A stretch of DNA of 64,000 bases, taken from positions 2,960 through 66,959 of the IMG/VR virus record IMGVR_UViG_3300050821_006606, one strand, 5' to 3'. The DNA is from a virus. Positions 4,264 to 21,400 of this stretch are shown here, piece after piece; position 1 is the stretch's first letter; each line of letters begins with the position of its first letter. The notes under the pieces were generated by a model. The model saw nothing but the letters and a program-made list of their open reading frames with translations. It did no database searches and was not told the origin of the DNA. A program made the position numbers and the translations under genes.

Positions 4264-4286
4264 ACCCGCGGAGGCCCGTCGCGGTT
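4264..4286 (-). promoter_or_regulatory. Head-gene leader hairpin motif (gp4 copy)
   Basis: AACCGCG ACGGGCCTC CGCGGGT, 28 nt before ATG; near-identical architecture before scaffold and portal. Confidence 0.7.
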
Positions 4287-4310
4287 CGGATAGCTGACCT
4301 TACCGAAAGA

Positions 4311-5075
4311 TCACTCGATTTGGCCAGCCTCCTCCAGCATAGCGGCGACATCATTGCTGGCGATCGCTTCTTTCAGAGCCTTTTTGCGCGCCCACATGGC
4401 CCTCATGCGCTCGCTCACGGCTTGCCTCTGCGCGGCAGTCATCTTGAGATTGGGCTTCTTGGGTTTCTGCTGCTTGCCGGGATAGAGCGGCTTGGTGGGA
4501 ATCGATTTGTCCGCCTCCAAAGCTGCGATCTTCGCTTTGAGCATCTCGATTTCGAGTTGCTCCGGCGTCTTCTCTTCGCGCTCGGCGGCCACTTCAGTCA
4601 CGATGCGGACGCCTTCGACGATATCCTCCTTCGATGGAGCCGGAAGATCGTCCATCCGCACGCCGGCGGCGATGAGTGCCTCACGTTCTTCCTGTTCGTT
4701 GTTGACCAGCTTTCCGCCGGCCCACTTCGGATACTGGATCGGCACGTAATTGGTGATCATGGGAGATGCATCGGCGACCGCGCGAGCGAATGCTCCAGCG
4801 TCAGATTTGCCGATTGTCTGGTAGCCCTGAGATTTGTGGTATTCCTCCTGCTGCGCGTCGTGAACGAGCACGTCAGGGAAGCGAATTGACTTTCCGCCGG
4901 TGTAGATCAGGCGCCCGGTCGGCTTGCCGGTCTGCGGATCGATCACCTTGATTTCTTGATCCGGCACGCCTGGCTGAAAGCCCGGATGCTTCATGTGCTT
5001 CGGATACTCGTTGAACGTCTTCACGGGCGGAGGCTCCCGATACATTCCCTTGCCGGGCTCAAGCAGGATAGCCAT
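4311..5075 (-). CDS. Hypothetical late protein (two YPK motifs, basic C-terminus)
   Basis: Long ORF in operon; EYPKHM and QYPKW motifs. Confidence 0.65.
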   Translation of the reverse strand: MAILLEPGKGMYREPPPVKTFNEYPKHMKHPGFQPGVPDQEIKVIDPQTGKPTGRLIYTGGKSIRFPDVLVHDAQQEEYHKSQGYQTIGKSDAGAFARAVADASPMITNYVPIQYPKWAGGKLVNNEQEEREALIAAGVRMDDLPAPSKEDIVEGVRIVTEVAAEREEKTPEQLEIEMLKAKIAALEADKSIPTKPLYPGKQQKPKKPNLKMTAAQRQAVSERMRAMWARKKALKEAIASNDVAAMLEEAGQIE

Positions 5076-5250
5076 CAGGGCGACGCCTTTCTCAGCCGCT
5101 GAAGTGCAGCCCAATTAAAATCATCGGGTGTGAAGGACTTAACCACTTCAGCCGAAATAGCATCGGCCAAATCGGTATCCATCTCTTTGCCGCTATTGCG
5201 TGGGTCACACCAACCGCGTGCGACGGCTTGTCGGACTTGCTCTTCCAAAG

Positions 5251-6046
5251 TCATGTTTTCCTCCGAATAACACGGGTTAGATGGTCCCGCTGCTCCTTGG
5301 CATGAGCCTTCACGTGGCCCATGAGGTGCGGGTCTTTCTTGATTTCCTCGGCCCGCTTCAGCGTGTCAAGAGCCGACTCGGCCTTGTACCGCATCTCCTC
5401 GGCCGAGGAAGCCGTATGCATCGTTCCCGGCATTGGAGCGGGTGCCGGCGTCTTCTTTGGTGCCTCGCGCTTCCGGGTCGGTGGCGTGCGGTTCTTGATC
5501 GGCGGTTTCATGGGCGCACCTCGAACTTGGTGGGAGCACGGATCCTTAGTTTACTGGCTTCGCCTTCTGGGCTGATCAGATTAATCCAACGCGGCTCACG
5601 AAGCAGAACTTCCGTTGCATGTTTGGCGAAAGCGCCAGCAGAAGCCGCGAACATCTGTTGCATCCGCCATTGCCATTCGGTCGGAGGCCCGAACTGCTCT
5701 GCTTCCGGAGGCGCGGGATCGGGATCAATATCGTTGTTGATCAGCAATTCCCGCAGGCGCTCGATCTCGGCTTTCAGCGCGATCGGATCATCGCTCATTT
5801 ACGGGTGTAACCTTCCTCGAAAGGCTTCCGCGGCGACACAGATTTGTAGCCGTCCGGATAGAGGACCGCATATCCGCCAACCTCCGCTCGGGCCATCATC
5901 CCTAGCTCAGTTGTCTGGAAGCGCTTTTCCACGCCATCAGGCGCCACGAACAATGCGATTGGCACACCGTTCTGGCCTCCATCGATCCGGACAATCGGTG
6001 TCGCCCGCACCACTTTATGGCTCTCGTATTCAGGCCAATCGCTCAT
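5251..6046 (-). other. Three small coupled hypothetical ORFs (5251-5511, 5508-5798, 5795-6046)
   Basis: Overlapping start/stop codons; third ORF has GGYAVLYPDGYKSVSPRKPFEEGY, a common phage hypothetical motif. Confidence 0.6.
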
Positions 6047-6843
6047 TCCGCTGCCTCCGCTTGCTGTTCCGTCAACCGGACGCATTCCCCTGTGTTCCAA
6101 CAAGTTGACCGACATTCCTTAGAATAAAATCGGCATTTACCCTCTGGCGGCGCTGCTGCGGCCTTCTGGACCGGGATCGCGCTATCCCAGAGCCGGCCCT
6201 TCCATTGCTTGCGGCCAGAATGTGTGAACTCGATGCTCGGATCGACCCAGATTTCGCCACCCATCTCGCGCCAGCGGTTGCACCAATCGAAGTCTTCACC
6301 CCACCAATAGTCTGTCCCGTAGGCGCCCATGCGGAAGATTTCAGCAATCCGGATGAAGCTCCCGTCGGGAAGCGCCTGCCGATAGGTCGGGCACGCCGCC
6401 GCCATCTTCTCCATGACGTGGCGCCTGATCCGTAGGAAACCCGTCGGAACGCGCAGAGCCTTGAACAGCCCACTCTTGGTTTGGATCAGATGCCCCTGGC
6501 TTTCATCCATGACGACAGGAAATTCCAAGGTCTCCTGCTTCTTCGGATAGGCGCCGGCCACGACATCTTCCGGATCCAGCAACATGCGCAACGGCGCCTC
6601 CGGGTCAGTCCAACCGACATCATCATCGAGGAAGAAAAGATCGGTTGCTTCCGGGAATTCGCTCAGAAACTTGTGCACCAGGCGATTGCGCGCGCTCGCC
6701 AGATAGCAGTCGCCATTGATGTTGATCAGATTATGGGTGACGCCAGCCGCCGTGAGCAAATTGCTGCTCGCGAAGAAGCTATAAAGAAATTCGACGGAAA
6801 CGCTGTGCGAGACGCAGGGGATCGCGAAAACGGGCTGCATCAT
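6043..6843 (-). CDS. GT-A fold glycosyltransferase-like protein
   Basis: VFAIP..ARNRLVHKFL..TDLFFLDDDVGW (DxD)..TGFLRIRR..GEDFDWC..GGEIWVDP..HSG. Confidence 0.75.
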   Translation of the reverse strand: MMQPVFAIPCVSHSVSVEFLYSFFASSNLLTAAGVTHNLININGDCYLASARNRLVHKFLSEFPEATDLFFLDDDVGWTDPEAPLRMLLDPEDVVAGAYPKKQETLEFPVVMDESQGHLIQTKSGLFKALRVPTGFLRIRRHVMEKMAAACPTYRQALPDGSFIRIAEIFRMGAYGTDYWWGEDFDWCNRWREMGGEIWVDPSIEFTHSGRKQWKGRLWDSAIPVQKAAAAPPEGKCRFYSKECRSTCWNTGECVRLTEQQAEAAE

Positions 6844-6904
6844 CCGATTCCTTTACAATGACCAGTGAACCGCCGTTACAGCGGCTCACCGGACATTGCA
6901 AATA

Positions 6905-7984
6905 TCAGGTGCCGGAAGTCAGGCCCAACGTCGACATCGCGGCCACATCATTGCCCTTGGCGGCCGGCTGGATGGTGGTCGTCGCGTCGGTGTTGCCAGC
7001 CTGGGTCGTGAAGTAGGCGATCTGGTAGCTTTCCACCGGTGGGGTGATCGCGGCGGAAGTGTTGTTCGCGAAATTCAGCGCCAGAGTGTTCGCCGCCGAG
7101 ATGCGCGCACCAGCCAGCATAAGTCCAGTCGTGACGCTCGGCTTGGTCACGATGACCTTACCACCAGAGACCAGGCCAGTGACGGTGAAGGTCTGCTCGG
7201 CGGAGGTGTTCGCGGCGACCGAGACGGGCGTCAGGGTTTGGTTGAACACATCCATGATCGGCGCCGGCTGGAAGCCACTGGCCGAGGCGAAGGTATAAGT
7301 CTCGGCCGCCGTCGGCGTGATGGTCGAGCCAGTCAGGTTTGAGAACTGGATCGCCACCTGGTTCGTGCCCGAAGCCCGGGCATTGGTGATGATCAGACCC
7401 GCCTGCGCCGTGGGCTTGTTGACGATCACTGTCTGACCAGCGCTGACACCGGTGACGGTGAAGTACTGCTCCGACACGGTGTTGGAGGCCACTGACGCGG
7501 GCGAGAGGATCGCCGTGGTCTGCAAAGCGGCACCAATCGCGATCGTCGCCCAGACCTGGGTGGAGGTCGGAGTGATCGCTGAGCCGGTCACGTTGCCGAG
7601 AGTAAGCTGAACGGTGTTCGCCGCGGAGACCCGCGCCGTGCCGACGATAAGGCCCGCCTGCGTGGTCGGTTTCACCATCGCCACCGCATCGGTCGCAAGC
7701 ACACCGGTCACGGTGATGGACTGCTCAGCCGAGGAATTGGCCGCGACACTCGCCGGCGAGATAGAGTTGCCGTACGTGGTCACGTTCGCGACGGTCGAGA
7801 ACATATTCCCGGCGGTGCCAGGCTGGACTTCCGGCGCCTGTCCGAAAAACCCGACCTTATCGACGGCCGACTTGCCAAGAGCGGTGCCTGGGCCGCCGCT
7901 AATGCCGTTGCCGTCCGAAAGCTGCCGGACATTGGAAGTCGTGGTGACCGTGCCAACCGTTACCGGTTCATTGCTGCCGCTCAT
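6905..7984 (-). CDS. Putative capsid decoration/virion protein with three tandem beta-domains
   Basis: Three repeats of P.SVA.N...EQ..TVTG..KP...GL....R.S..N...ITP; DKVGFFG motif; downstream of coat gene. Confidence 0.6.
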   Translation of the reverse strand: MSGSNEPVTVGTVTTTSNVRQLSDGNGISGGPGTALGKSAVDKVGFFGQAPEVQPGTAGNMFSTVANVTTYGNSISPASVAANSSAEQSITVTGVLATDAVAMVKPTTQAGLIVGTARVSAANTVQLTLGNVTGSAITPTSTQVWATIAIGAALQTTAILSPASVASNTVSEQYFTVTGVSAGQTVIVNKPTAQAGLIITNARASGTNQVAIQFSNLTGSTITPTAAETYTFASASGFQPAPIMDVFNQTLTPVSVAANTSAEQTFTVTGLVSGGKVIVTKPSVTTGLMLAGARISAANTLALNFANNTSAAITPPVESYQIAYFTTQAGNTDATTTIQPAAKGNDVAAMSTLGLTSGT

Positions 7985-8364
7985 GCGAGTGCTCCTACTT
8001 CGACGGGCGTCATTGGGTAAGCGTCAGCCATCATCCAGTCACGCCGCTGTCCCTGGATAATTTGCTTGTTCACGTCGGATGCGATCTGGCGAATGGCCGC
8101 TTCGCTCATCATTGGACCGAGGAACATCACCTTCCGGGTGTTCCGCACGGTCACGCCAACCTGCCAGAGCTCGTCCTTCGGCTTCTCAGTCGTCATCTTC
8201 GCCGCGATCTCAGGTGGGATCGGAGCGCCATTGGCCTCTTCCTCCATCTGAGATCGGAGGGCCGCCTGATACGCCGCGCTGTCGGCCCGCCGGCTCAGTT
8301 CACTGACGAACTGGCCGGAGGGGCGCCGAAGGCGCTGCTCGAAGCGTCGTTGCGCGCGGTTCAT
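7981..8364 (-). CDS. Hypothetical protein (MNRAQRR N-terminus)
   Basis: GGAGG RBS, stop overlaps next start. Confidence 0.65.
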   Translation of the reverse strand: MNRAQRRFEQRLRRPSGQFVSELSRRADSAAYQAALRSQMEEEANGAPIPPEIAAKMTTEKPKDELWQVGVTVRNTRKVMFLGPMMSEAAIRQIASDVNKQIIQGQRRDWMMADAYPMTPVEVGALA

Positions 8365-8899
8365 CGCTCACCTCCAGCGAGTCGCGCTTCAGGTATTCGG
8401 TTAACCGGTCTTGCCCGATTGTTCGAAGCAAGATTTCGTAACCGCCGACCCGAACATTGCAAGCGTGGCACAACAACCCACGAACGATGCCCGTCTCGTG
8501 GCAATGATCGATCGGCCAGTTCGCAGAGTATCCGCCTGGTAGCCGCGCCTGTCGGCCATTGCTGTGCCTGTGACCATGCTCGGTGGCACCACAAAGAGCG
8601 CACGCATTGCCTTGCTCGGCCAGCAGTGTCTCGTACTGAGCGGGCGTGAGGCCGTACTTGTATTTGATGTCTGCGTTCCGCCGATGGATCGCCGCCCGCT
8701 CTGGGTTGGCTTTTTGCCATTTCGCTGAATTTGCTGCCGTCTTCGCCCGATAAGTCGGGTTGCTCGCATAGATGGCTCGCACGCGCGCTGATTCGCATGT
8801 CTTGCAAGCACCTCTGCGCCATCCCTTGGATTTGTTCGTCATCGTAAACGATGAAACTGGCAAATCCCGATGACATTTCGGGCACGCCCTGAGTTCCAT
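8300..8899 (-). CDS. Endonuclease VII-like free-standing homing endonuclease
   Basis: CPKC..CKTC; KYGLTPAQYETLLAEQGNACALC..IDHCHETGIVRGLLCHACN. Confidence 0.85.
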   Translation of the reverse strand: MELRACPKCHRDLPVSSFTMTNKSKGWRRGACKTCESARVRAIYASNPTYRAKTAANSAKWQKANPERAAIHRRNADIKYKYGLTPAQYETLLAEQGNACALCGATEHGHRHSNGRQARLPGGYSANWPIDHCHETGIVRGLLCHACNVRVGGYEILLRTIGQDRLTEYLKRDSLEVSDEPRATTLRAAPSAPLRPVRQ

Positions 8900-8962
8900 A
8901 TACTTCCCCCACTCGAAAAATCGCAGGGGAAGTATAAACAGAGCGGATAGGGATGTCGCGCA

Positions 8963-10147
8963 TCAGTTCGTCAACCTGACGCCCAAGGAATTATAGAACA
9001 TGGCCGTTCCAAATAATATGTCGATACGGCAAGGCGTAACGTCGTTCCACACGTCGTAAGCCCTGACGATGCGCATACTGATGTTGCGGAACATCTCCCG
9101 GGCCGCGAAGTCGACGCCGCCTGGCAGTTCCATGGGCACGACCACGAGGCCGAAGGCGTCGCGGCAGAAGCCTATGTTCTGGAAGTAAGTGGTGTTCGCC
9201 GAACCGACGACAGTGATCGCCGCGCCGTTGGCGGGTGAGGCCGTCACGTTCTGATAGGCACCAGTGGTCGTGATCGCCGGGAAGATTTGCAGGGTGGCGT
9301 TGCCGCCAACATCCGAAGCCGCCACCGCCGTAAGGGTGAATTGCTTCAGGGTGCCGGTCGAGAGGTAGTTTTGAGGGTTGACCTCATAAACGCCGGCCAT
9401 GGTGAAGACATCACCGACGTTCAGCAGGCCCGACCGCGAAGCCGTCCAGCCGTTGGTGATGATCGAAGACCCGGTTTGGTTCGCGCCATTGACGAGCGGC
9501 GTGCCGCTGTAATTGCCGACGGTCTGTGCCTGGATATTCTGATCCAGGTAGATTTCGAAGTTGGCGATCGCCGCCAGGAAGCCTTTCAGCGCTGGCTCAG
9601 CGACGGAACGGGTGAACAGGTTCGACACGCCATTCGCCAATGACCAGTAAGCCGCCGGGTTGAGGATCAGCACGCGGCCGTCCTGTGGTGCGGCGTTTTC
9701 GTCGAGGCGCTGCCCAACAGCGGCGATCGACGCGAAACTGGCCGGCGGAGTGCCGGGCGTTCCGACCTCGTTCGAAAGCTGGCTGTAGAGGGCCAGCACA
9801 TTGGTATCGATGGTGTTCGCCAGCGTTTCGGCCGCCGGCTTGCAGTACCGCTCGGAATACTCCTCGATCGTGAGGGTAAGTTCCTGCGAGGAAAACTGGA
9901 AATCGACGTGTGCCTGCGTCGAGATCGAGATCGACGTGGATGGCTCCGTGATGTCCTGGATTTGCAGCGCCGGACCGAGAGTGACCGTGAAGCGGTTCGG
10001 TTTGCGCACCGTAAGTGTAGTGCCAATCTTCACGAACTGATTCTCGAATTGGCGGTTGACTTTACCTGCCGCCACGAGATTATTGACCAATATTACAAGT
10101 GTTTCCTTAGTAATAAGGCTCGGAGTCAGAAGTGCATTGGCGGCCAT
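8963..10147 (-). CDS. Major capsid protein, P22 coat family
   Basis: MAANALLTPSLITKETLVILVNNL..KIGTTLTVRKPNRF..GDVFTMAGV..CRIDILFG. Confidence 0.92.
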   Translation of the reverse strand: MAANALLTPSLITKETLVILVNNLVAAGKVNRQFENQFVKIGTTLTVRKPNRFTVTLGPALQIQDITEPSTSISISTQAHVDFQFSSQELTLTIEEYSERYCKPAAETLANTIDTNVLALYSQLSNEVGTPGTPPASFASIAAVGQRLDENAAPQDGRVLILNPAAYWSLANGVSNLFTRSVAEPALKGFLAAIANFEIYLDQNIQAQTVGNYSGTPLVNGANQTGSSIITNGWTASRSGLLNVGDVFTMAGVYEVNPQNYLSTGTLKQFTLTAVAASDVGGNATLQIFPAITTTGAYQNVTASPANGAAITVVGSANTTYFQNIGFCRDAFGLVVVPMELPGGVDFAAREMFRNISMRIVRAYDVWNDVTPCRIDILFGTAMFYNSLGVRLTN

Positions 10148-10297
10148 TTACTTACCCTTTACTAAGGTGAAGGCGATTGACGTTGAGGCGGTGGCGTGGT
10201 AACTGTTGTTCCGACGGGATAGGTCGGCCAACCGAACGTCCAGCCTCCGCACTGGGCTTCCCGTCATTACCTTGCGGTACAGATGCGGAGATGAGTC

Positions 10298-11233
10298 ATG
10301 GACATTGAGGAAGAGTCTTCGACCGATTTTGGGCGCGTATTGCCGGCGCCGATGTCCGTTGCGGAATTGCGCAAAATCCTGCGTTACAACCCGAAAACCG
10401 GTGGAATGACATGGATAGTCTCGCCGGGACGCCGAGTTCGAGCAGGAGAGATCGCTGGAACAATCAATTCCGCTGGTTATTTGGTCGTCAAAATCAAAGG
10501 ACGATTTTACAAGGGTCATCGCCTTGCATGGTTTCTTGCCACTGAAGAATGGCCTGACCGGGCCCTTGAGATTGACCACATCAACGAGATCAAGGGCGAC
10601 AATCGACTCTGTAATCTTCGGCTGGTCACTCGATCCGAAAATCAGAAGAACATCGCCAGCAAGCGGACATGGAAGCCTAAGCCCAAGAGTGACGGGCCGA
10701 TCCGGCGAGGACGTGGATTCCAAAGGCCGGCGCCGATGACGCAAGATGCTCTGAAAGCGATCCTTACTTACGATCGTGACACTGGGTTGCTTACTTGGTT
10801 GGCGTGTACGCCCTGTGGCCAAGGCGCTGTCCATCTCAAGGCGGGCACGACCGCTGGGTGCCGTAGCGTCTGGGGTTACATCGTTGTGCGCCTGAACAAA
10901 GTGCTCTATCCGGCACATCGCCTGATTTGGCTTTGGATGACCGGCACGTGGCCGCCCGATATGATCGACCATGTGAATGGGATCAAAGACGACAACCGCT
11001 GGGAGAACCTGCGCCTCGCGACCAGCAGTCAGAACAATATCAATCGACGCTCGACTTTGCCGAACACCAGCGGCTACCGAGGTGTAACGCGGCATCGCGA
11101 CAAATGGATTGCTCAAATCCACATCGAAGGCAGGAATACCGCGCTCGGCACTTTCGACACTGCTGAGGATGCCCGTGCGGCGTACGTCGAGGCGGCTCGC
11201 CTGCATCATGGCGAATTCGCGAGAACCGTCTGA
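10298..11233 (+). CDS. Homing endonuclease with two HNH domains and a C-terminal AP2 domain
   Basis: Two YxxHRL.W..IDHxNxxKxDNRxxNLR units; NTSGYRGV..WIAQI..LGTFDTAEDA..HHGEFA; GGAG RBS. Confidence 0.9.
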   Translation: MDIEEESSTDFGRVLPAPMSVAELRKILRYNPKTGGMTWIVSPGRRVRAGEIAGTINSAGYLVVKIKGRFYKGHRLAWFLATEEWPDRALEIDHINEIKGDNRLCNLRLVTRSENQKNIASKRTWKPKPKSDGPIRRGRGFQRPAPMTQDALKAILTYDRDTGLLTWLACTPCGQGAVHLKAGTTAGCRSVWGYIVVRLNKVLYPAHRLIWLWMTGTWPPDMIDHVNGIKDDNRWENLRLATSSQNNINRRSTLPNTSGYRGVTRHRDKWIAQIHIEGRNTALGTFDTAEDARAAYVEAARLHHGEFARTV

Positions 11234-11324
11234 CCTGAGGGCGTGATTGCCCAACGCCGTGAACTCCTCTGGCCACGGCGGATGCCGCGGTCCTACGTGG
11301 TTGTGATCATGTTCGGTGGTCCTT

Positions 11325-11421
11325 TCCCGAGGCGTGCTCGGTGGTCCCGGACGTGCCGGTGGCAGGCGGTAGTGTCCCGGGTGTCCCGGTGGGTAGGCAC
11401 GTTACCCGGCGCGTGGCCGGT
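11325..11421 (-). repeat. Array of four CCACCG...CGGG(A/T) hairpins
   Basis: Copies at 11404-11421, 11375-11390, 11345-11360, 11325-11342. Confidence 0.75.
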
Positions 11422-11427
11422 GGGTCG

Positions 11428-12651
11428 TCAGTGAATTTGGCTTGGCGGGAAGAACGGCGCGCGCTCCTGGCGCAACGCCTTCATCCGTCGTTCGGCGTAA
11501 GTAGCCATGTCAGGCTCGGCATCGGTCGTGTCGGCGCGGTTTTCGGTCGTGTCGATCGGCTCGATTGGCGCCGGCCGCGCTCGTCTCGGAGGATTGGCGA
11601 TCCGTTCGGATATCCGGCCAAGCTCGATGAATTGTTCCGCGACGTTGGGCATTGAGGCGATGCGAACCGATTCCTCGGGATCCTGCGCCAATTGGTAGGC
11701 GATGTCCGGACCATTCTCGATCAGCAGGATCGCTGCCGCCATCGCATCGGTGATCGTAGGGCCGCCGTCGGCCGGCGCCTTCTTGGTCACCTCATCGAAG
11801 TCCGGGTATTTCTCGGTGGCCTTCTCGACCCTGGCGGTCCAGGTGTCATAGGTCTGCTTGACCGCTGCTTCATGCGCGACTCGCGCCTCTTCGTCAGCTT
11901 TGGCTTTGGCCTCAGCCTCTTCTGCTGCTTTCTTCTCGGCATCGACCCGGGCGGCTTCCGCTGCCACGGCTTCTTGCTCGCGGTGGGCTTCCCGTTTGCC
12001 CCAGGCGACCATCGCCTCATCGTAGAGGTCTGGATTATCGAACTCGTCCCTGGTCGGGCGAGGATCGGGCTTTGGCTCTTCCTTGGGAGCGGCGGCCTTC
12101 AGATCATCGAGGGTCTTCTGAGCCGCTTCGAGAGCTTCCCTGGCTTCCTTCGCCTCTTTGGCGGCGATGGCCGCTTTGCGGTTGGCCTCATTGACGGCCG
12201 TATCACGGGCGACATCGACGGCCTTCTGCCATGCCTCATCACCAACCTGTGCCCGAGCGGCTTTCCAGGCGGCGTCGGCGGCGTCCTGCGCTTTCTTGCG
12301 CTCCTTCTGGATCGAACGCACCGCATAGGATGGCAGATCATCCGGGATGGCGTCGAATTCGAGTTTGGGAGGCGTCTCCGGCTGATCATCCGGCTTGGCC
12401 TCGGTCTCAGGCTTGGCTGTCCCATCAGACTTGGGATCAGCGTCAGGCCCTGCCCCCTTCCTGGCGGCGGTCGCCGCTGCCAATTCTTCGGCCGTGATCT
12501 CCTTGGGCTTGCCTGCCGCTATGTCAGCCGGATCATTCGAGGCGGATTCGGGTGGCGTTGCGACCGGTGCCAGGGGCTGGTCGGTCGTCGCCGACAGCGG
12601 GATCGCTGTGCGTTCGATGATGTCTGGAGCACGAGAAGCTGCAAGCGCCAT
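11428..12651 (-). CDS. Capsid scaffolding protein
   Basis: Acidic coiled-coil; P.RDEFD..YDEAM..W; EKYPDFDEV; GPDIAYQLAQDPEE..RIA; APIEPI; upstream of coat. Confidence 0.85.
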   Translation of the reverse strand: MALAASRAPDIIERTAIPLSATTDQPLAPVATPPESASNDPADIAAGKPKEITAEELAAATAARKGAGPDADPKSDGTAKPETEAKPDDQPETPPKLEFDAIPDDLPSYAVRSIQKERKKAQDAADAAWKAARAQVGDEAWQKAVDVARDTAVNEANRKAAIAAKEAKEAREALEAAQKTLDDLKAAAPKEEPKPDPRPTRDEFDNPDLYDEAMVAWGKREAHREQEAVAAEAARVDAEKKAAEEAEAKAKADEEARVAHEAAVKQTYDTWTARVEKATEKYPDFDEVTKKAPADGGPTITDAMAAAILLIENGPDIAYQLAQDPEESVRIASMPNVAEQFIELGRISERIANPPRRARPAPIEPIDTTENRADTTDAEPDMATYAERRMKALRQERAPFFPPSQIH

Positions 12652-12686
12652 GGGCGAGAGAAATCCCGATCAGATTGGATTCTGTC

Positions 12687-13063: not shown

Positions 13064-13065
13064 AT

Positions 13066-13141: not shown

Positions 13142-13145
13142 CTTT

Positions 13146-16100
13146 CTACTGCTGGAACACCAGATAGGTCTGATTCTGGATCGTCTCCACGGTCATGAGC
13201 GCGGTCAGTTGCGCCGCCGAGTAGCCGAACACGAGGACACCGGGCCCATCGTTCGCGCTGGCAGTGATGAAGGCGAAGGAAGCTCCGGCGAAGTTCACAT
13301 CCCGGATAACCCAACCAGACCCTTGTGGCACGTCCACGGTCAGTTTGAATGTGCCGGGATCCGGAGTGATCGCATTGAAACTGATCAGTGTCAGGGCGTT
13401 CATGAGCACTTCGATCGACAGCGGCGCGTGGATACCATCACCCTTGCCGATAGTGGTGCCACCGGCCTGAGCTACCGCGAAATCCCGGAACATGGTAGGA
13501 TTGGCGTCGAAGATGGCCTGCGCCCCGGACAAAGGCACGTTCAGCCCGCCACTCAGTTGATTGATGGTGATGGTGCCCTTGCCGGTGAGTTCGATAATCG
13601 TCTTGCCGGTGTATTCGAACCCCTGGCCGCTGTCCTGCGAGGCATCCCAATATGTGAAAGAGGTCTTGGACCCGTCCGAGTTCGGTGCGAGCATCGGCTT
13701 AAATACGATGGTTGACCCCTGAAAACAGCCATAAACGAGACTGTTATTCTCCTGGGGAGTGCCGCTGGACGCGCTTGGCTCCAATTTCAGCCGCACAGCA
13801 CCGGTCGCCTGGCGCATATCGAAGGTGCCTGACTGGTAGTTATTGAAGTCGTAAGAGCCGCCCGCGGTGATGATCTCATTGAGAGTGGTCACTGTATCTG
13901 CTCCTAAGCTGTTGGTTTGAACCGTATGATCCGGCGTCATCGTCAGGTTGGAGTCCACATCCTCCGCGACAATGGCGAAGTGCTCCAATGTATTCACCGG
14001 AAGATGGGCCATGACGGCGCTGTGCGCCGTGCCGAACAGATTTTCTATGTCAGAGTACCGGAAGTACGCCGTGCTCGATCCGAACCTCACATATCCCAGC
14101 GAAGGTTTGTCGGTCGTCCAGTTGACCCGCGCATCGGTGCCGTCGATCAGGGATAATGTCACATTGCTGATCACCGGCGGCGTCGTGTCCGTGGGCGGTG
14201 GCGGAAGATGAGGCAGCAATTGGGTCGGGAAATAGACCGATTCCTCCTGCACCCGCTCCGTCGCCAGTTGCAGATCACGCCCGGTCACCTCTGGACGCGC
14301 GACGGAGCCGCCTAACCCGTTCCGAACGAAGTTGCTTATCTGGTTGAGCGGCAGAGTCACCATCGCGTCGAACTGCACAACCCCTGGAATGGTCGAATAG
14401 CCACTACCGCGAAGCGCGGCCTGAGCGGACCGGGCGCTGAACGGAAATTCAGGGATGGTGCCCCAGTTATCCCAATAGGCGCCAAGCCTGTTTTGGATCG
14501 GCCAAACGTCCGTGTTCAGGTAATTGCCGGACCACGGTATGTCGGATGGCACCCCAAACCTGTAGAATTTAGGCGCGCTATCTCCAAATCCGTGCACCAG
14601 CAATCGAGCTTCATTCTTGTCGATCGCGAGCGCCCATGGGTAATGACCAGGGTCAATTCCATAATTGCTCGATGGTTCACTTCGGGTGCCGTCCGCGGAG
14701 ATGCGGGTCATGGTGCGATTGTCGCCACCCGTATCGCAATTCACGAAAACATCGTCGATCGGCCCGATGTTGCCATTGCGATCGACATCGATCCAAGTCC
14801 AGCCCGCGCCACACAGGCCGCTGGCGATCAGCGTCACAGCGTTCGTGGTCAGGTCCATGTGCTTGATATTGCCGGCGGTCAACTCGTCAATGATCAGATT
14901 GGTGTGCGAGTCGAAGCGGACCGCGAACGGCTGGCTCAATCCTTGTGCCGCGCCGGCGATGGTGCTTACCGTGCTGCCATCCGGAGAAATCATGCGGATG
15001 CTGTTGTTGTCGTAATCCGCTACATACATCGTGCCATCCGAGCGCACCACGATGCTGTTTGGACCGCCGAATTGCGCCGTCAGGGCTGGACCATCGACAT
15101 TGCCTTGGATGCCGGGAACCCCTGCGTATGTCGTGATGTTCGGTGGGCTGACCGAGAAATCGACCTTGGCGATACGCGCGTTCGATTGGTCGGCCACGTA
15201 CAGGATACTGCTGTTCCTCGGATCGAAGGCAAGGTCCGTGGGCTCGTTAAAACCGACACCATTGAAATTCCCGATCGTGGTGAACTGAAGGGCATCCCGG
15301 TCCGACTGTGTGACGTTGGAATCCCAGATGGAGTAAGGCACAACGGATTTAATTGTCTGGCGACCCGCGATCGTGACCACCGAACCGTCCATGTTGAGTT
15401 GGAAGATGCGACCAGCTAGATCGATACCTACAAAGCCTCGCGCGGTGGGATTCGGGACATAGGTGCTGTAGGGCGACACGATGTTGTCATCACGCGATCC
15501 GTCGATCGCGGGCCGCATCAGAACACCGGGCAGGGCGATGTCGGAATCCGCTCCGGCCTCTGGGTCCATGGTCTCAAACAGAAGGCGACCGGCCTTCGTG
15601 CGAGCGATCTGAAGCCCGGTCTGCTCAAGGGTCACATTGGATTGGGTAAGGGATTCTTCCGTGAAGTACGGGCCAAGGCCCTGGTCCGACAGATTTCGCG
15701 AACTGGCCGGTGCGCTCACAGGTGAGGTATAAGATGTCGTGGTCGCGGGATGCGGCCATGTATAACCGGTGGTCCAGAACCGCCACTCCGGGATATCCGT
15801 TCGGCCCCAGTTGCGTATAACACCAGAGCCGACACTCGGCAGCAGTTGCGGGCCTGTGTTGGGTGTCGGATTGTTCCCGACAAGGAATGTGACCGCCGTC
15901 GGCACGTCTTTCGTAGTGTCGCCACTGCCGTCGACCAGGATCACCGAAGCGACGTGCGCGCCATCCGGTACGGTGGTGGAGTCCCAGGTGAACGCGTAGG
16001 GCGAGGTCAATCTTCCGCTCACCGGCTTGCCGTCGATCGTGTAGATCAGCGTGACACTGGGATCGATATTGCTGAGAAGATCGTCTTCGTAACTGAAATG

Positions 16101-16298
16101 CCGGCGCGCGCTTATAGCGACCAAGCCGGCGACCTCGCTGTAATTAGTGTCCGCCGAAGTCAGTGTCGGATAGATGCCTCCCCCATTTACTGGGTCCGTA
16201 TTCGTGGGAAAGATGCCGGGCGACACATACGGCTCGATCTGTGCCGCGGCTGGGAATGCACCGAGTAAAATAGCTGTGACCAGGGCAAATCCGCGCAT
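13146..16298 (-). CDS. Large signal-peptide protein with Ig-like, NHL-repeat and FN3-like domains
   Basis: MRGFALVTAILLGAFPAAA-Q; SPYAFTWDSTTVPDGAH (Ig-like); PTDLAFD..LYVADQSNARI, MYVADYDNNSIR (NHL); DTTPPVIS..VNWTTDKP (FN3-like). Confidence 0.75.
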   Translation of the reverse strand: MRGFALVTAILLGAFPAAAQIEPYVSPGIFPTNTDPVNGGGIYPTLTSADTNYSEVAGLVAISARRHFSYEDDLLSNIDPSVTLIYTIDGKPVSGRLTSPYAFTWDSTTVPDGAHVASVILVDGSGDTTKDVPTAVTFLVGNNPTPNTGPQLLPSVGSGVIRNWGRTDIPEWRFWTTGYTWPHPATTTSYTSPVSAPASSRNLSDQGLGPYFTEESLTQSNVTLEQTGLQIARTKAGRLLFETMDPEAGADSDIALPGVLMRPAIDGSRDDNIVSPYSTYVPNPTARGFVGIDLAGRIFQLNMDGSVVTIAGRQTIKSVVPYSIWDSNVTQSDRDALQFTTIGNFNGVGFNEPTDLAFDPRNSSILYVADQSNARIAKVDFSVSPPNITTYAGVPGIQGNVDGPALTAQFGGPNSIVVRSDGTMYVADYDNNSIRMISPDGSTVSTIAGAAQGLSQPFAVRFDSHTNLIIDELTAGNIKHMDLTTNAVTLIASGLCGAGWTWIDVDRNGNIGPIDDVFVNCDTGGDNRTMTRISADGTRSEPSSNYGIDPGHYPWALAIDKNEARLLVHGFGDSAPKFYRFGVPSDIPWSGNYLNTDVWPIQNRLGAYWDNWGTIPEFPFSARSAQAALRGSGYSTIPGVVQFDAMVTLPLNQISNFVRNGLGGSVARPEVTGRDLQLATERVQEESVYFPTQLLPHLPPPPTDTTPPVISNVTLSLIDGTDARVNWTTDKPSLGYVRFGSSTAYFRYSDIENLFGTAHSAVMAHLPVNTLEHFAIVAEDVDSNLTMTPDHTVQTNSLGADTVTTLNEIITAGGSYDFNNYQSGTFDMRQATGAVRLKLEPSASSGTPQENNSLVYGCFQGSTIVFKPMLAPNSDGSKTSFTYWDASQDSGQGFEYTGKTIIELTGKGTITINQLSGGLNVPLSGAQAIFDANPTMFRDFAVAQAGGTTIGKGDGIHAPLSIEVLMNALTLISFNAITPDPGTFKLTVDVPQGSGWVIRDVNFAGASFAFITASANDGPGVLVFGYSAAQLTALMTVETIQNQTYLVFQQ

Positions 16299-16309
16299 TT
16301 CTGTCTCGT

Positions 16310-16720
16310 TTATGCGATAGCAGCGGCGAGCAACAAGAATTCCGTGTTGGCTTCCTCGATCTCTGCCTCTTCGGCATCCAAAGCCTTGAAAATACGCACG
16401 AGAGATGCCGCGTAGAGTTGTTCATCGAAGGCCGGCGGAAGCGGCAGCGGTTCAGGTTCGGGTGCGTCTATCTCCGGTGGTGGAGGGATCCTGATCGCCT
16501 CGATTACGGCTGGCTGCTCCCGGACAAGTCCGATTTCTTTCCGTAGAGCATCGAGCATCGTCCGCCGGCGAGCCGCGATATCGATATTCCGCGTATCAAG
16601 GACGCGACGATATCCCTCGGGAGGCTCTTGTTCGTCGCTTGTGGTCGCTCCACCAACAGGCGGCGCCGGCGGGATTTGCCCGAGGGAGACCAGCCCAATG
16701 GGGAAATATCCAATGCTCAT
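16310..16720 (-). CDS. Hypothetical protein
   Basis: Coupled to upstream gene; acidic-then-hydrophobic C-terminus. Confidence 0.6.
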   Translation of the reverse strand: MSIGYFPIGLVSLGQIPPAPPVGGATTSDEQEPPEGYRRVLDTRNIDIAARRRTMLDALRKEIGLVREQPAVIEAIRIPPPPEIDAPEPEPLPLPPAFDEQLYAASLVRIFKALDAEEAEIEEANTEFLLLAAAIA

Positions 16721-18036
16721 CAGGTCAAGGTGTTGATCAGCGTATAGGAGATATCGACCTGGGCATGGCCGGTTTCTGCTGTAGAGACCGTGATCGCCAA
16801 TGTAAGACCCAAGCCGCTACCGGGCTGTGAGCCACCCGTCGCCGTGAATGCGTTAGCAAGAGTTTGGTAACTAGTGCCTAGTGAGGTCAGCGTATAAGTC
16901 AGGACGCCGCCGCCGCCGTCGACGGTGTTCACTTGGTAAGTCGCATCCCCTGAGTCTTGGACAAGAGTGCCTGTATCACCGATCGCATAACCACTACCAC
17001 CCGCCGCGAGGCTACTCGAAGTGATCGGGCCCCAAACACCCATATCGGCGGCTTGAGTGATTGCAATCCCCTGGTCATCTTCAAACTGAGAGATCGTATT
17101 ACCCGCCGCATCGAACACCAATGAATCCCCAGCATTTCCAAACAGCGGCGACAAATTGCTGTTCATAATATCGAAGCCGAGATTATCGGAAAATACCAAT
17201 TCCAATGGCAATACCGCCGAAGCTCCAAAGGGCGCTGTTCCGCCTTTATATTGGGCCGTCGCGGAAATGACGTTGATCGTCTTTCCAGAGCCGGGAGCGG
17301 CAATCGCGGTAATCGGAACAGAATTCAGTTCTGTCAACGCGGTTTCGGAGATTGGGACCGAGACCGTGAGGACAGCACCCGATCCGCCGCTTCCATTCGA
17401 TGCCGCTGTGATGCGGCCCTTGCCATCGACGGTGATGTTGGCATTGGTGAACGAACCAACATCAGGGTTGACCGTCGCCAAGGTCGCCGCTTGGGAGCCT
17501 GATCCCGGGCCGGCCGTAACATCGCCAGTCAATTGAGTGATGCCAGATCCGCCGGTTCCGTTTGACGCGGCCGTAATCTGGCCGGCAGCGTTCACGGTGG
17601 CATTCATGTTCGTATAGCTGCCGGCCGTCACACCAGTTGGCGTGATCGTCGTGGTCTCAGACCCGGAACCTGGACCGGCAGTGACTGGGCCGGTGAGTTG
17701 AGTGATCCCAGAGCCACTTGTCACGTCTTCAGCCAGGATAGCCGCACTCAAGATTGTATCGGCCGGAAGAAATGCCGCGATACCGGGTCCGTTGGAACTG
17801 AAGAGCGGCCCTCGGGTCAGCAGCGGTACAGGCCCGGTGGCATTGTATGTGCCGTGGCCGACTTCCCAGATCAGGCCGCCGGCCGCCTGGACACTGTACG
17901 ACACTTGGTTGCCGTTGACGGCACCCGCCTGTGCCAGACTTTGAAACCCTGGCACCACCGCACCCAGCAGCATGTGGCCGGCACCAGCGGTGTTCTGGAC
18001 CAGCATTTTAACCATGTCGAAGAGTGGAGCGGGCAT
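16720..18036 (-). CDS. Fiber-like virion protein
   Basis: WEVGHGTY N-terminal module; two GITQLTG.VTAGPGSGS..GS.TN....V...G.ITAASNG fiber repeats; C-terminal GGSGYAIGD module. Confidence 0.65.
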   Translation of the reverse strand: MPAPLFDMVKMLVQNTAGAGHMLLGAVVPGFQSLAQAGAVNGNQVSYSVQAAGGLIWEVGHGTYNATGPVPLLTRGPLFSSNGPGIAAFLPADTILSAAILAEDVTSGSGITQLTGPVTAGPGSGSETTTITPTGVTAGSYTNMNATVNAAGQITAASNGTGGSGITQLTGDVTAGPGSGSQAATLATVNPDVGSFTNANITVDGKGRITAASNGSGGSGAVLTVSVPISETALTELNSVPITAIAAPGSGKTINVISATAQYKGGTAPFGASAVLPLELVFSDNLGFDIMNSNLSPLFGNAGDSLVFDAAGNTISQFEDDQGIAITQAADMGVWGPITSSSLAAGGSGYAIGDTGTLVQDSGDATYQVNTVDGGGGVLTYTLTSLGTSYQTLANAFTATGGSQPGSGLGLTLAITVSTAETGHAQVDISYTLINTLT

Positions 18037-18913
18037 TATTGGACCGTCGCGGTTGCCGAGACTGCCTTACCGTCTTTGTCCCGATTCAGGGATACCATCC
18101 TCGGCGCGCGGATTGCCTGATCAAGCGTTTCGGTCCATTGCTTCATGTTGGTCATCAAACTTTCATGGCCGCCAGCGAGCGTCTTCATTTGCTCGGCTTG
18201 GCTCTGAGTCTGCCGGTCCAACGTCGCGGCGACCTCAGTCAGCGCGCCCTTGTGCTCTCCCTGAGACCCGCGCATGTCATCGACGAGCGAGGTTACCGCA
18301 TCAGCCATCGCCCGTATGACATCGGTGTTCTCTTGGAGAGAAGCGCGAAACTCTTCGACTTTCTCCGTGTTGGCCTTCAGCGCTTCACTCAGGCTCCATA
18401 GGCCAGCGATCATGTTCGGCGGGATCGTCAGCATCAGCGCCGGGCCGTGATCAGTGTCCTCTTTGAGAGCGGCCTTGGTCTCTTTCTCGGCGCGGGCAGG
18501 CGAAACCGGCTCTTCGTCGACAATCTCGTGATGAACCGGCGACCATCCGTCGTTCATGTGTACTCCGTCACCTTCGTTGGCGGCGCCACTCGATTATATC
18601 GCATATATTGGGCACTCGGCAGAAATGCGAACCCACGTTGATCATTGAGTTCTTCAGGAGTGATCCCATGGATCATGATCGCTTCATCCTGCGGGTAAAA
18701 ACCTCTGGCGATATAATACTGTTCAAGCTCAATGTTTTGCATCGCCGCCAAAGAAAGATAGGCCCTCACTGGCGGTGGGTCTTTCGCGACTGTCACGGAG
18801 ACCCCTCTGTTTTCGAGATGCTTCGCGACATCCTCACGGACCATCACGATGCCGAGGTGCGTCCCGGTTGTATCGACCAGTTTGAACCATGCGCCTGATA
18901 GCCGTCCGCTCAT
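18036..18913 (-). other. Two hypothetical ORFs following portal (18036-18557 coiled-coil; 18554-18913)
   Basis: Translationally coupled; C-terminal RDKDGKAV motif in first. Confidence 0.6.
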
Positions 18914-21348
18914 GCCGCCCTCTGTGGCTTGCCATCCTGCCCGAGCGTCCACCGCTGGCCATTGGCGAAGCGGGTTATGCGGCCGGGCTTGAGATGCTGC
19001 AAGGCTTCTGGGGGCAGCGCTCCGGCCTCCTGGGGCTGACTTGGCGCTTGAGGCGCCGAACTTGGACCTTCGGCCGGCATACTTGGAGCATTCGGCGCTG
19101 TCCCGGCAGCTTGGCTCGCGCCGCCAGTGTCGTTCGCCGGTTCCTGTCCTTGGTTTTCCAGCACGTGCACGAGACCGGTCGTCTCCTCGCCCAATTCGTT
19201 TATCTGGGAGGCGATATGCGTATTGAAATTCGCGTTAGCCTTCTGGTTGATCGCGGCCATTTTGGTCTCGGTATCCGAGATGACCTTCAGCAAAGCCGCT
19301 TCGAACCGCTTTTCGATATCATCGTGTTTGATCGCGCGATCGGCGTTCTTGTCCTGCAACGCGGCCATGGCCTGCCGTAGCTGCTCGGAAAGCTGCTTGA
19401 TCGCGTTCTCCTGCCCCTGAAGGATCGCCTGCACCTGGGGCGTGACATCCTTCATATCCGGCGACATGAGTTGCGGTGGGATGGTCTTCGCGAGCCGAGC
19501 AGCGATTTGCTCCGCACCTGGCCAATCTTGCGCCTGCGCGAACAGATCGACCACCAGAGCGGCGGTCTGCGGCAGCGCTTTCATGAAGGCCATCATATTT
19601 TCAGATGCTTCGATCCGCTTCGTCGCGTAGGATGGCCCGATCGTCACCGTGACGCCGTAGCGCCCGTAGGTCGGGTTGTAGAGTTTGCGGACCTTCCCAT
19701 CCGGCCGGCGCTCCTCCCCAGAGGCCCGGTTCATGTTCGGATCGATCTTGACCTGTTCCTCTTTCTCGTCCTCGCGCAAGATCGTGAGCACCCGCGGCTC
19801 ATCGTAAACTTTGGGGATCAGTTCGACCATGATCTCCCCAGCGCGCTTCAGCGAGCGAGCGAGGTTGTCGATGTAGTGGAATGCTCCGATATCGCCCGAG
19901 CGGCGAAGTTCCCGGATCGCCTTCCCGGACTCGTCGATCATCCGCTCGTTCATCGTGGCGTCGAACCGGATCCCGGTCGTCGCCATCATGTCCTGCGCTG
20001 CCCCAGCGATCGCCGCCTCAATACCCGCCGGAATGCCCGCCATGGGCTGACGCTGCGGCGGAGGCGCCGGATGACCGGCTACCGAGGTGCCCTTGTAGGA
20101 CAGATATGGGATGTTCTTGACGTTCGCGTTTTTGAACTCGTCCTCGTGGCCCTCGATCTGGCCCTCTTCCACCACCCAAGGCGACTTCGGCTGAAGCGCG
20201 ATCAGTTCTGTCTCGGCCGTCTTCCAGTAGTTAAACATCCGCTGTGGGTCTTTCGCGTTGCGGATGATACCGGACAGCTTAGATTTACCCTCAACGTCGG
20301 TTTCCTCACCAATAACTTTAACTACTGGTATAGTAGAACCCAGCCATTCACGCTCCATGAGGACATCGGTCGCGGTCACCTTGTACCACATGACCTTGGG
20401 CACCCGGCTCTCGCGCTCATCGACTACTTTCACTCGATTGCGCTTAATCTTGGCCTTCACAATATCGTCGAGTTCGTCCTTCCACCCGACATGCCCATTG
20501 TCGAGCTTCACAAGTATTTTGGTGTCGTACTCGATCTCGAAATACTCAGCGATCCGGATTTCGTCTTTAGATGCCCAGGTTGACATCTTCTCGCCAATAC
20601 CGGCGTCCGTGTAGGGCATCTCCGGGACATCCGGATATTTCTCTTTGAACTCGTCCCGCGTGATCATCTCCGTGACGAACGCATATTTGGCGTCCGCACC
20701 GGTCGGATCTTGGTGCGCAGGATCGAGGTAGACCGTGAAGGCATTCCGGATGCGCCGCACAACCAGCACGAGATTGAAGCTGTCCGGAGCTTCCCATTCA
20801 GTGAGGATGCGAAAAAATCCCCAACCCATTGTCACGGCATCGTCAAAAGCCGTGTCATAAGCGATGTCCGCCGAGCAATCCCGCTCGATGAACCGGATCA
20901 TGCCGCGGTAGAGTTTGGCGACATCACTATCGCCTCGATCGCCCACCGGAGAAATGTTGATCGCCGGCCGGTTCTGGCGCTGATCGTTCACGATCTGATG
21001 TATGAACGTCGGCAGCTTATTGATTGTTAAACATGGCCTTTTGTCGATATTTCGTTGCGCCATTATCGCGGTCGGCCACTGTTCGCCAACCCGGAATAGC
21101 TTGTCGTCCAGACCGGACTTCCGCATCTCGCTCTCGGAAGAAATGCATTTTTCCATTCTTTTTCGAATTCGATCGAGCAACTTCGCCTTTTTGGCTTCGG
21201 CTCCCTCAGGAGCTTTGTTGCTCAGTCTGACAATGCCCTTGTCGTCGAAATTGGACAGATCGCGAGGCGCGACCTTAACCATGGCGCTATCAGTTGGCGG
21301 CATACGCACGCGCCCGGAATCCGGCGCGCGAAGGGGACTATCGGCCAT
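18910..21348 (-). CDS. Portal protein, P22-like
   Basis: GEQWP..RPCLTINKLP..NDQRQNRP..GIIRNAKDPQRMFNYW..SGKAI..GPSYATKR. Confidence 0.92.
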   Translation of the reverse strand: MADSPLRAPDSGRVRMPPTDSAMVKVAPRDLSNFDDKGIVRLSNKAPEGAEAKKAKLLDRIRKRMEKCISSESEMRKSGLDDKLFRVGEQWPTAIMAQRNIDKRPCLTINKLPTFIHQIVNDQRQNRPAINISPVGDRGDSDVAKLYRGMIRFIERDCSADIAYDTAFDDAVTMGWGFFRILTEWEAPDSFNLVLVVRRIRNAFTVYLDPAHQDPTGADAKYAFVTEMITRDEFKEKYPDVPEMPYTDAGIGEKMSTWASKDEIRIAEYFEIEYDTKILVKLDNGHVGWKDELDDIVKAKIKRNRVKVVDERESRVPKVMWYKVTATDVLMEREWLGSTIPVVKVIGEETDVEGKSKLSGIIRNAKDPQRMFNYWKTAETELIALQPKSPWVVEEGQIEGHEDEFKNANVKNIPYLSYKGTSVAGHPAPPPQRQPMAGIPAGIEAAIAGAAQDMMATTGIRFDATMNERMIDESGKAIRELRRSGDIGAFHYIDNLARSLKRAGEIMVELIPKVYDEPRVLTILREDEKEEQVKIDPNMNRASGEERRPDGKVRKLYNPTYGRYGVTVTIGPSYATKRIEASENMMAFMKALPQTAALVVDLFAQAQDWPGAEQIAARLAKTIPPQLMSPDMKDVTPQVQAILQGQENAIKQLSEQLRQAMAALQDKNADRAIKHDDIEKRFEAALLKVISDTETKMAAINQKANANFNTHIASQINELGEETTGLVHVLENQGQEPANDTGGASQAAGTAPNAPSMPAEGPSSAPQAPSQPQEAGALPPEALQHLKPGRITRFANGQRWTLGQDGKPQRAA

Positions 21349-21353
21349 TTGTT

Positions 21354-21400
21354 ACCCGCTCTTGGCGGTGGAGGGGAACCCGGTGAGCCGCGAACCGGTA
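21354..21400 (-). promoter_or_regulatory. Two head-gene leader hairpins (portal)
   Basis: TACCGGT TCGCGGCTC ACCGGGT (21378-21400) and CCACCGC CAAGA GCGGGT (21354-21371). Confidence 0.7.

Follow-up and report, generated by a model that had tools for sequence, protein, structure and literature searches.

Why should physically dispersed virion genes of one phage be preceded by the same small hairpin? The question is raised by a 64,000-nucleotide stretch of viral DNA (bases 2960-66959 of the 66,959-base IMG/VR virus record IMGVR_UViG_3300050821_006606; CheckV completeness 83%), hereafter termed the window, in which the hairpin heads three genes on the minus strand, the strand of the virion genes concerned. 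A first-pass annotation had taken it for a protein-binding element that coordinates a head-assembly regulon. The best reading is instead that it belongs to a clade-specific leader module on each separately promoted virion-gene (late) transcription unit, and we lean towards the view that this module is a shared cis-acting structured RNA leader of virion transcripts, acting post-transcriptionally. The three genes are the following.

3490-4236, minus strand: gene of a 248-residue virion protein (phrog_12985, function unknown)
11428-12651, minus strand: scaffold gene, 407 residues (phrog_8865, E 1e-18)
18910-21348, minus strand: portal gene, 812 residues (Pfam P22_portal, E 3.7e-164)

These matches bear out the portal and scaffold labels of the first-pass annotation. 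By contrast, its "gp4" label for the 248-residue protein found no backing in the P22 gp4 tail-accessory family, as this protein has no Pfam match, no relative in the PDB and a PHROG of unknown function; synteny suggests that it may be an adaptor.

A structured element ahead of virion genes

The minus-strand 23-mers at 4264-4286, 12687-12709 and 21378-21400 match the sequences quoted in the first-pass annotation exactly. Each of them has a 5-bp CCGnn/nnCGG stem with A and G flanks and a 9-nt loop with a CTC end. The ATGs at 4236, 12651 and 21348 begin 28, 36 and 30 nt past the motif end, and a good Shine-Dalgarno sequence is absent from the last 12 nt ahead of each of the three. The elements, together with a further pairing (stem 1) described below, are laid out as follows, with scores from the covariance model R1; the hairpin itself is stem 2.

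4264-4290, minus strand: leader element 1, ahead of the 248-residue protein gene (31.1 bits); stem 1, 4290-4287 with 4278-4275; conserved A, 4285; stem 2, 4284-4280 with 4270-4266; conserved G, 4265
12687-12712, minus strand: leader element 2, ahead of the scaffold gene (33.7 bits); stem 1, 12712-12710 with 12701-12699; conserved A, 12708; stem 2, 12707-12703 with 12693-12689; conserved G, 12688
21378-21403, minus strand: leader element 3, ahead of the portal gene (34.3 bits); stem 1, 21403-21401 with 21392-21390; conserved A, 21399; stem 2, 21398-21394 with 21384-21380; conserved G, 21379

A consensus pattern derived post hoc, ACCGNNNNGSGSCTCNNCGGGT, matches the window exactly at three places, each on the minus strand, compared to 0.00 in 100 shuffles. 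Over the whole 66,959-base record, it has three matches on the reverse strand and none on the forward strand, and its backwards control has none. With two mismatches permitted, the 13 matches found against 8.9 expected are background. The model R1, which was built on the leader element and applied to the window, related records and distant loci, scored the three sites at 31-34 bits, and the next match in the window at 15 bits. Generic CCGnn-loop-nnCGG palindromes number 23 in the window, but the A and G flanks combined with a CTC-ended loop occur in just the three sites. By consensus and covariance model alike, these three are the only strong copies in the record. Searching the whole window against Rfam 15 at the gathering threshold returned two tRNAs only, the leader element matching no family, and at E<=5 on three 3-kb loci nothing was found at the leader sites. 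The three sites are also missing from the terminator list; their tails read GTGCTTCC, GTGACAGA and GTTCCCCT, an intrinsic terminator being a GC-rich hairpin followed by a T-run.

Relatives of the phage were gathered from IMG/VR, with 8 loci found via portal (63-71% identity) and 80 loci via coat, the identity of which is confirmed by Pfam; a locus search with the 248-residue protein alone gave one locus only. The closest isolated phages are ~40% identical in portal and coat, and blastn of the phage DNA against isolated phages gave no match. In the relatives, the orthologous portal, scaffold and 248-residue protein leaders show the same A-CCGnn...nnCGG-G hairpin, seen before any structure search, while the inner pairs vary (CCGGG/CCCGG, CCGGT/ACCGG, CCGGC/GCCGG). 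Conservation ahead of orthologous genes, on which the first-pass annotation had staked its proposal, is thus observed. So are the compensatory stem changes that it had read from the three copies: over 14 sequences, all 70 cells of stem 2 are paired, 13 of them with double changes, and none of 500 shuffles is as high. In a scan for ACCG-N11-15-CGGG, both inner pairs are Watson-Crick in 20 of 46 matches on the gene strand, compared to 2 of 27 antisense matches. R1 at E<=1 gave 2-8 matches in each of five related records, the stronger ones all on the virion-gene strand, which carries 39 of the 40 covariance-model matches over 500,870 bases. One distant group swaps the third stem pair by compensation (CCAGC/GCTGG). 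The loops of the various copies measure 3-11 nt, a spread that speaks for RNA folded as a single strand and against an operator in duplex DNA. We are highly confident that the element is a real structured RNA element.

The element is confined to a clade. Across 403,490 bases from 34 P22-like loci of more distant relationship, R1 found none (best E-value 0.28), and in five complete element-free relatives the best covariance-model match reached just 17 bits. In three of these five, the 248-residue protein gene abuts its upstream gene.

The genes headed by the element in the relatives are more varied than the three in the window. In addition to the scaffold gene and the 248-residue protein gene, they include the portal gene (or, where a small gene or an HNH gene precedes portal, that gene), DNA-ejection protein genes (phrog_598, three cases), the gene of a transglycosylase-like virion protein and the gene of an 87-residue protein. 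Each genome has 3-7 headed units. Since ejection-protein and other virion genes are also headed, the element is not head-specific and marks virion units generally. The notion of a head-assembly regulon is accordingly too narrow, whereas the underlying observation, a strand-specific element of preserved structure in front of physically dispersed virion genes, is upheld.

The same distribution bears on the mechanism proposed in the first-pass annotation, in which free scaffold protein would bind the hairpin and repress or tune translation of head-assembly genes. The element does precede the scaffold gene in the window and at least 8 relatives, and a preprint mentions the N-terminus of the P22 scaffold as implicated in translational autoregulation (bioRxiv 10.1101/2022.12.13.520362). 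The proposed likeness to P22 would be that a phage with a head of the P22 type regulates its scaffold gene after transcription. However, nothing links the element to the scaffold protein, and the P22 case serves as an analogy only: the element is missing from the 34 more distant P22-like loci, it also heads ejection-protein and other non-head units, and distant relatives without it still have scaffold, coat, portal and the 248-residue protein gene. Moreover, the scaffold proteins are just 38-48% identical, compared to an invariant RNA face. We regard scaffold autoregulation as quite improbable. Thus, of the "protein-binding RNA (or DNA) element" originally suggested, the RNA nature stands by virtue of variable spacing, covariation and strand bias, and the link to scaffold finds no support.

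A probable pseudoknot at the predicted transcript start

RNAalifold on the scaffold leaders pointed to pairing of the 5' flank with the hairpin "loop". To this stem 1 the "loop", which is therefore not a true loop, contributes its initial 3-4 nt, and these pair with the 3-4 nt that immediately precede the conserved A. Among 93 instances picked on stem 2 alone, 55 have at least three contiguous stem 1 pairs, compared to a permuted mean of 26 and maximum of 37 (1000 permutations). Taking both stems jointly, 91.3% of 126 cells are paired in the 14 training sequences, 91.4% of 151 cells in 17 distinct independent covariance-model matches, and 91.4% of 324 cells, 70 of them double-change cells, in 36 distinct matches. 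In controls with the partners slid by 1-3 columns, only 19-53% are paired, and the observed values were reached by none of 500 shuffles. The sequences of stem 1 are diverse, including GCG/CGC, GCT/AGC, CCG/CGG, ACCA/TGGT, GCCA/TGGC and CCAT/ATGG. The order of parts, namely the 5' arm of stem 1, one A, the 5' arm of stem 2, the 3' arm of stem 1, 4-7 nt and the 3' arm of stem 2, is that of an H-type layout. An H-type pseudoknot is thus the probable fold of the element, in which both stems are predicted from the pairing pattern to form at once. A riboswitch was ruled out, as loop 3 is not conserved.

Promoter-like sequences lie immediately upstream of the elements.

4297-4302, minus strand: -10-like TAAGGT, read from the sequence, ending 11 nt before the conserved A of element 1
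12725-12753, minus strand: scaffold promoter-like TTGACG (12753-12748), 17-nt spacer and TTAGAC (12730-12725), the latter ending 16 nt before the conserved A of element 2
21410-21439, minus strand: portal promoter-like TTGCTT (21439-21434), 18-nt spacer and TATCGT (21415-21410), the latter ending 10 nt before the conserved A of element 3

A TANNNT hexamer whose end lies 10-14 nt upstream of the conserved A is present in 21 of the 55 stem 1-bearing instances, compared to 4 of 55 in a control window and 1 of 38 in background hairpins without stem 1, and many of these -10-like hexamers have a TG extension. Four orthologous scaffold leaders share the arrangement TTGACG-N16/17-(C)TAGAC. As the -10-like boxes lie 10-16 nt upstream, transcription probably starts 0-6 nt before stem 1, and for element 1 the start is predicted near 4290. 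On the strength of these motifs, it is likely that the element sits at the 5' end of the transcript.

The 3' GGG of stem 2 can also pair with C-rich bases just before the start codon, forming a second helix (helix 2).

4238-4267, minus strand: predicted helix 2 of leader 1, GGGTG/CACCC around a small hairpin, 1 nt before ATG 4236 (minimum free energy (MFE) folds and swap control)
12652-12690, minus strand: predicted helix 2 of leader 2, GGGTGA/TCGCCC around a covarying hairpin, up to ATG 12651 (folds and RNAalifold)
21355-21369, minus strand: short second hairpin of the portal leader, A-CCGC-CAAGA-GCGG-G, in place of helix 2 (sequence and fold)

At least four end-to-end pairs of helix 2 are present in 26 of 32 leaders, with the helix ending 0-6 nt before the start codon. 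The mean number of end pairs is 6.7, compared to 3.2 in shuffles, and p<=0.05 in 17 of the 32. When ends were swapped among leaders, the leaders' own mean was 5.0 against 4.4 for swapped ends, and 6 of 2000 permutations reached the observed value. RNAalifold on seven scaffold leaders showed that the inner helix covaries with compensatory changes. The alignment of 248-residue protein gene leaders gave stem 2 only, because helix 2 is out of register there. Stem 2 and helix 2 have the two outer Gs in common and must therefore either stack on or compete with one another.

In addition to these leader copies, an array of further copies follows the scaffold gene.

11326-11421, minus strand: four short-loop hairpins in the A-CCGnn/nnCGG-G frame, between the scaffold stop and the next gene (11421-11405, 11390-11376, 11360-11346 and 11342-11326)

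The scaffold-coat interval of relatives L069, L072, L073, L074, L076 and L079 holds homologous arrays, each of 2-5 copies. Past the tandem hairpins of the window, the segment 11252-11325 (minus strand) holds an AAAGGA Shine-Dalgarno sequence and a 5-codon mini open reading frame (mini-ORF; ATG 11310 to TAG 11293), then a GC hairpin, a strong Shine-Dalgarno sequence (AGAGGAG) and a TTG start at 11254. Relatives have mini-ORFs of 2-6 codons in the corresponding position ahead of the coat gene, and the region looks like a translational-coupling or attenuation device.

With promoter-like sites and arrays in hand, a function at the level of DNA can be judged. The element might be an operator or a downstream promoter element for a late activator or repressor, or a gene-conversion cassette like the PeSLs of T4-like phages. 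This would agree with its place directly downstream of -10-like boxes, its recurrence at several places per genome and the homing HNH genes that adjoin some copies. It is at odds with an arm spacing of 3-11 nt, with inner stem pairs and a stem 1 that change by compensation instead of being conserved, with tandem copies that have no promoters and with the strict sense-strand bias. Variable arm spacing, compensatory changes, sense-strand bias and promoter-free tandem copies together argue for an RNA and against a duplex-DNA site, leaving the DNA-level explanation the least probable of those considered, and very improbable. Three particular candidates were ruled out: an extracytoplasmic-function (ECF) type or phage RNA polymerase promoter, as the arm spacing varies, and an N4-type DNA hairpin promoter, as there is no ORF for a giant RNA polymerase and the genes are late.

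Promoter-proximal RNA structures call to mind processive antitermination. In phage lambda, N acts with nut, and in HK022 put acts as RNA, these being short RNA structures that lie after promoters or inside operons and have a cis effect on downstream phage genes. Lambda nut consists of boxA and the 15-nt boxB hairpin with a 5-nt GNRA-like loop, and HK022 put is a two-stem RNA of ~70 nt; both are early-operon systems. The nascent element, alone or with a phage protein, could likewise modify RNA polymerase past the promoter, and tandem copies could reload it. Promoter-proximal copies combined with copies inside the operon, as for nutL and nutR, fit this idea, as do the strand-specific, RNA-level nature of the element and, upstream of the promoter-like site of portal, a terminator-like hairpin that carries a T-run (~21500-21540). 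Compared to lambda nut, however, the leader element has variable loops of 3-11 nt, with neither a GNRA-like pentaloop nor a conserved boxA-like block adjoining. Terminator candidates in 3400-22000 number 14, compared to 16.4 in shuffles, so there is no evident need for antitermination, and helix 2 at the start codon is left unexplained. Antitermination is an improbable explanation. A sub-threshold Rfam match to suhB/mmgR at ~21467-21542 (plus strand; 28.2 bits against a gathering threshold of 41, E 0.013) overlaps the terminator-like hairpin near portal, and the terminator stem probably explains it.

Possible action of the leader and its candidate factor

In the reading we favour, the module would take up about 30 nt at the very beginning of the mRNA. 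The hairpin seen in the first pass would be stem 2 of a compact H-type pseudoknot, with the lone conserved A as the crossing loop, and the conserved 3' G would open helix 2, in which GGGYR... pairs with C-rich bases before the start codon that lacks a Shine-Dalgarno sequence. RNA structure would thus conceal the 5' end of the mRNA and lock the region of initiation. A factor common to all units might read the invariant A/CCG:CGG/G face and open the leader or hold it, so that all virion units would be switched or balanced jointly after transcription. Such a mode of action would most resemble that of Mu Com on mom mRNA and that of the T4 gene 32 operator, extended to a regulon. The invariance of the A, the CCG:CGG pairs and the G among phages with proteins at 40-70% identity, together with a helix to a start codon without a Shine-Dalgarno sequence, favours a shared operator or lock read by a protein. 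Nevertheless, lock, factor and control direction are extrapolated from base pairing and conservation, and factor-dependent translational control via the leader is put forward tentatively, as a serious possibility short of an even chance.

The main rival, to which antitermination, scaffold autoregulation and a DNA-level cassette are all inferior in likelihood, is a passive one. A 5' stem-loop can stabilise mRNA, and the pseudoknot and tandem hairpins might serve as a stabiliser or roadblock that protects virion mRNAs, and the coat segment in particular, against decay that depends on the 5' end, be it by RppH and RNase E scanning or by RNase J, with no dedicated factor required. The predicted start 0-6 nt before stem 1 fits such a role, as do the 2-5-copy arrays directly preceding the coat gene or the neighbour inserted next to it, and no unknown protein has to be postulated. 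On the other hand, a stabiliser has no need for an A, a CCG:CGG and a G that stay invariant at 60-70% protein identity while other parts of stem and loop drift, and it leaves the helix to the start codon unexplained. Passive protection is rather unlikely, though ahead of the other rivals.

Several observations weigh against the leader reading and should be set beside the evidence above. The two stems could be alternative hairpins instead of a pseudoknot, single-sequence folds are no stabler than shuffles (z 0.19, -0.87 and 0.01), and the MFE folds of sites 1 and 2 use helix 2, stem 2 staying open. Helix 2 is lacking in 6 of the 32 leaders, the window's portal leader among them, and the small drop on swapping ends means that much of this helix is due to the shared GGG.../...CCC ends. 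All shuffle tests overstate the support, as the sequences are related by descent. The compensation to CCAGC/GCTGG in one distant group weakens the argument that the sequence of the stem is read. A scan for E. coli-type promoters flagged none of the three sites, with totals at background; the scaffold site went unflagged because its -10 has no T at position 6. The transcription starts and the "late" timing are themselves predictions. Among sequencing runs, none of RNA was found to contain the stretch, and a single DNA run, possibly the source, came up.

A candidate for the common factor was sought by co-occurrence of ORFs, comparing 9 further element-bearing records with 5 complete element-free records (coat ~70% identical) and leaving out frames that shadow a longer conserved gene. 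The 248-residue protein, for instance, has homologues in all nine and all five records.

26252-26572, minus strand: gene of a candidate Cys4 zinc-ribbon protein of ~107 residues with a long helix (clade-restricted co-occurrence)

This Cys4 protein is encoded in 9/9 element-bearing and 0/5 element-free records, and its gene is the sole non-shadow ORF of the window with that pattern. It has the invariant motif R-x-E-x-C-x-S-W-C...C-x-x-C-G, and its AlphaFold2 model has a predicted local distance difference test (pLDDT) score of 84. It has no PHROG, and Pfam at E<=10 gives just a chance-level match to CTU2; its Atlas scores of <=0.80 are likewise at chance level. Among 5.8 billion proteins, 27 homologues were found, all unnamed. 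Further points that count against a role on the leaders are that no PDB fold matches it at E<=0.001, with no recognisable RNA-binding fold, and that the distribution of TerL and of two small genes nearby is almost identical (7-8/9 and 0/5). As these genes share the pattern, the co-occurrence is confounded by descent and is a lead only. That the Cys4 protein acts on the leaders is, on this showing, a doubtful proposal. Similarly unlikely is the far-reaching version in which all late transcripts begin with a pseudoknot stacked on a start-codon-locking helix and the Cys4 protein (26252-26572) binds their invariant A/CCG:CGG/G face and unlocks all of them, as a Com-like activator of translation for an entire late regulon that would replace a transcriptional late switch. 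Late control in tailed phages is usually described as transcriptional, by activators, sigma factors or antiterminators.

As a structured 5' leader operator, the element is of a known kind. The gene 32 leader of phage T4 carries at its 5' end an H-type pseudoknot of ~28 nt that is the recognition site for the translation-controlling protein (PMC535899). The leader element resembles it in having a small H-type pseudoknot topology in the 5' leader, ~30-40 nt before the start codon. They differ in what follows the pseudoknot: in T4 gene 32 only, this is an unstructured A/U-rich stretch of >40 nt with UUAAA repeats, which serves cooperative binding, and a normal ribosome-binding site (PMC535899), compared to a GC-rich, predicted folded leader without a Shine-Dalgarno sequence here. 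There is also no sequence likeness and no Rfam match between the two. Moreover, the T4 operator is autogenous and serves one gene, whereas the leader element heads 3-7 different units per genome, and its presence before several unrelated genes argues against simple autogenous control.

The Com protein of phage Mu, a small zinc-finger protein, binds a short hairpin immediately 5' of a translation-inhibition structure, which contains the start signals, in mom mRNA and thereby activates translation (PMC6483171). The leader may be similar to that system in that a hairpin or pseudoknot abuts a predicted start-codon helix, the specific covariation of which is modest, and the phages have a clade-restricted Cys4 protein. 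However, this protein has no detectable homology to Com. The motif read by Com lies in the hairpin loop, whereas the leader element has variable loops and an invariant stem base, and Com has a single target, compared to many units here.

The PeSLs of T4-like phages are repeated cassettes of a sigma70-like promoter and a stem-loop, present in many copies per genome; the stem-loops, positioned ahead of the -35 and -10 or overlapping them, act as terminators and accompany early ORFans in hyperplastic regions (PMC2839356). The leader elements share with them the repeated pairing of promoter and stem-loop, but place the structure 10-16 nt past the -10-like box, have no T-run and head conserved virion genes.

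Taken as a whole, the element appears undescribed, being absent from Rfam, and nothing comparable was found among the papers listed in a search of the literature outside subscription journals. If the favoured reading is true, it would amount to an RNA-level regulon across all separately promoted virion units in uncultured soil phages with a P22-type head, based on a covarying motif of ~30 nt outside Rfam. The covariance model would then mark the starts of late units in metagenomic phage contigs, and the leader with the Cys4 protein offers a testable RNA-protein pair. Should the leader indeed be a lock for which one protein is the key, it would also provide a small orthogonal translational switch.

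Neighbouring genes and minor observations

The region around the three leaders shows several further departures in gene order. Between portal and scaffold, ~5.8 kb of genes (13146-18952, minus strand) include those of a 1050-residue NHL-repeat protein and a 438-residue protein; in relatives L004 and L005, the scaffold gene follows within ~0.6 kb after portal. Between scaffold and coat lies a 368-residue ORF (10148-11254, minus strand) that runs directly up to the start of the coat gene. Pfam and PHROG assign it to no family, one relative has just a weak partial match to it, and it resembles an insertion into the scaffold-coat spacer. Genes of HNH homing-type endonucleases adjoin leader-controlled genes at 2761-3486 and 26559-27230 of the window and at L052:14400-14900, and in relative G002 an HNH gene lies between the leader element and the portal gene.

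Start regions also vary among relatives. In the portal leader of G003 (L006:9922-10003), 2 nt separate the helix end from a mini-ORF of 8 codons, the stop of which shares bases with the portal ATG (TGATG). The homologue of the 248-residue protein in G003 (L055:7032-7080) seems to start at a CTG, 6 nt past GGAGG.

The large terminase gene (phrog_2; 32108-33691, minus strand) lies ~11 kb upstream of portal and is not adjacent to it. This phrog_2 terminase was not found in the five element-free relatives (tblastn E<=1e-5), where another terminase must serve. For a 502-residue ORF at 23613-25121, neither a family nor a homologue in G001-G004 was found.

Genes of tRNA-Met and tRNA-Thr (12796-13141, plus strand) run counter to the virion genes a short way upstream of the promoter-like site of scaffold, and a tRNA-Gly (28608-28694, minus strand) lies inside a crude call of a 329-residue ORF. 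Finally, the segment 37932-38279 gave tblastn matches in two frames on both strands, in 9/9 element-bearing and 4/5 element-free relatives; its translation looks non-coding, and a small gene or a conserved element of DNA or RNA may lie there.

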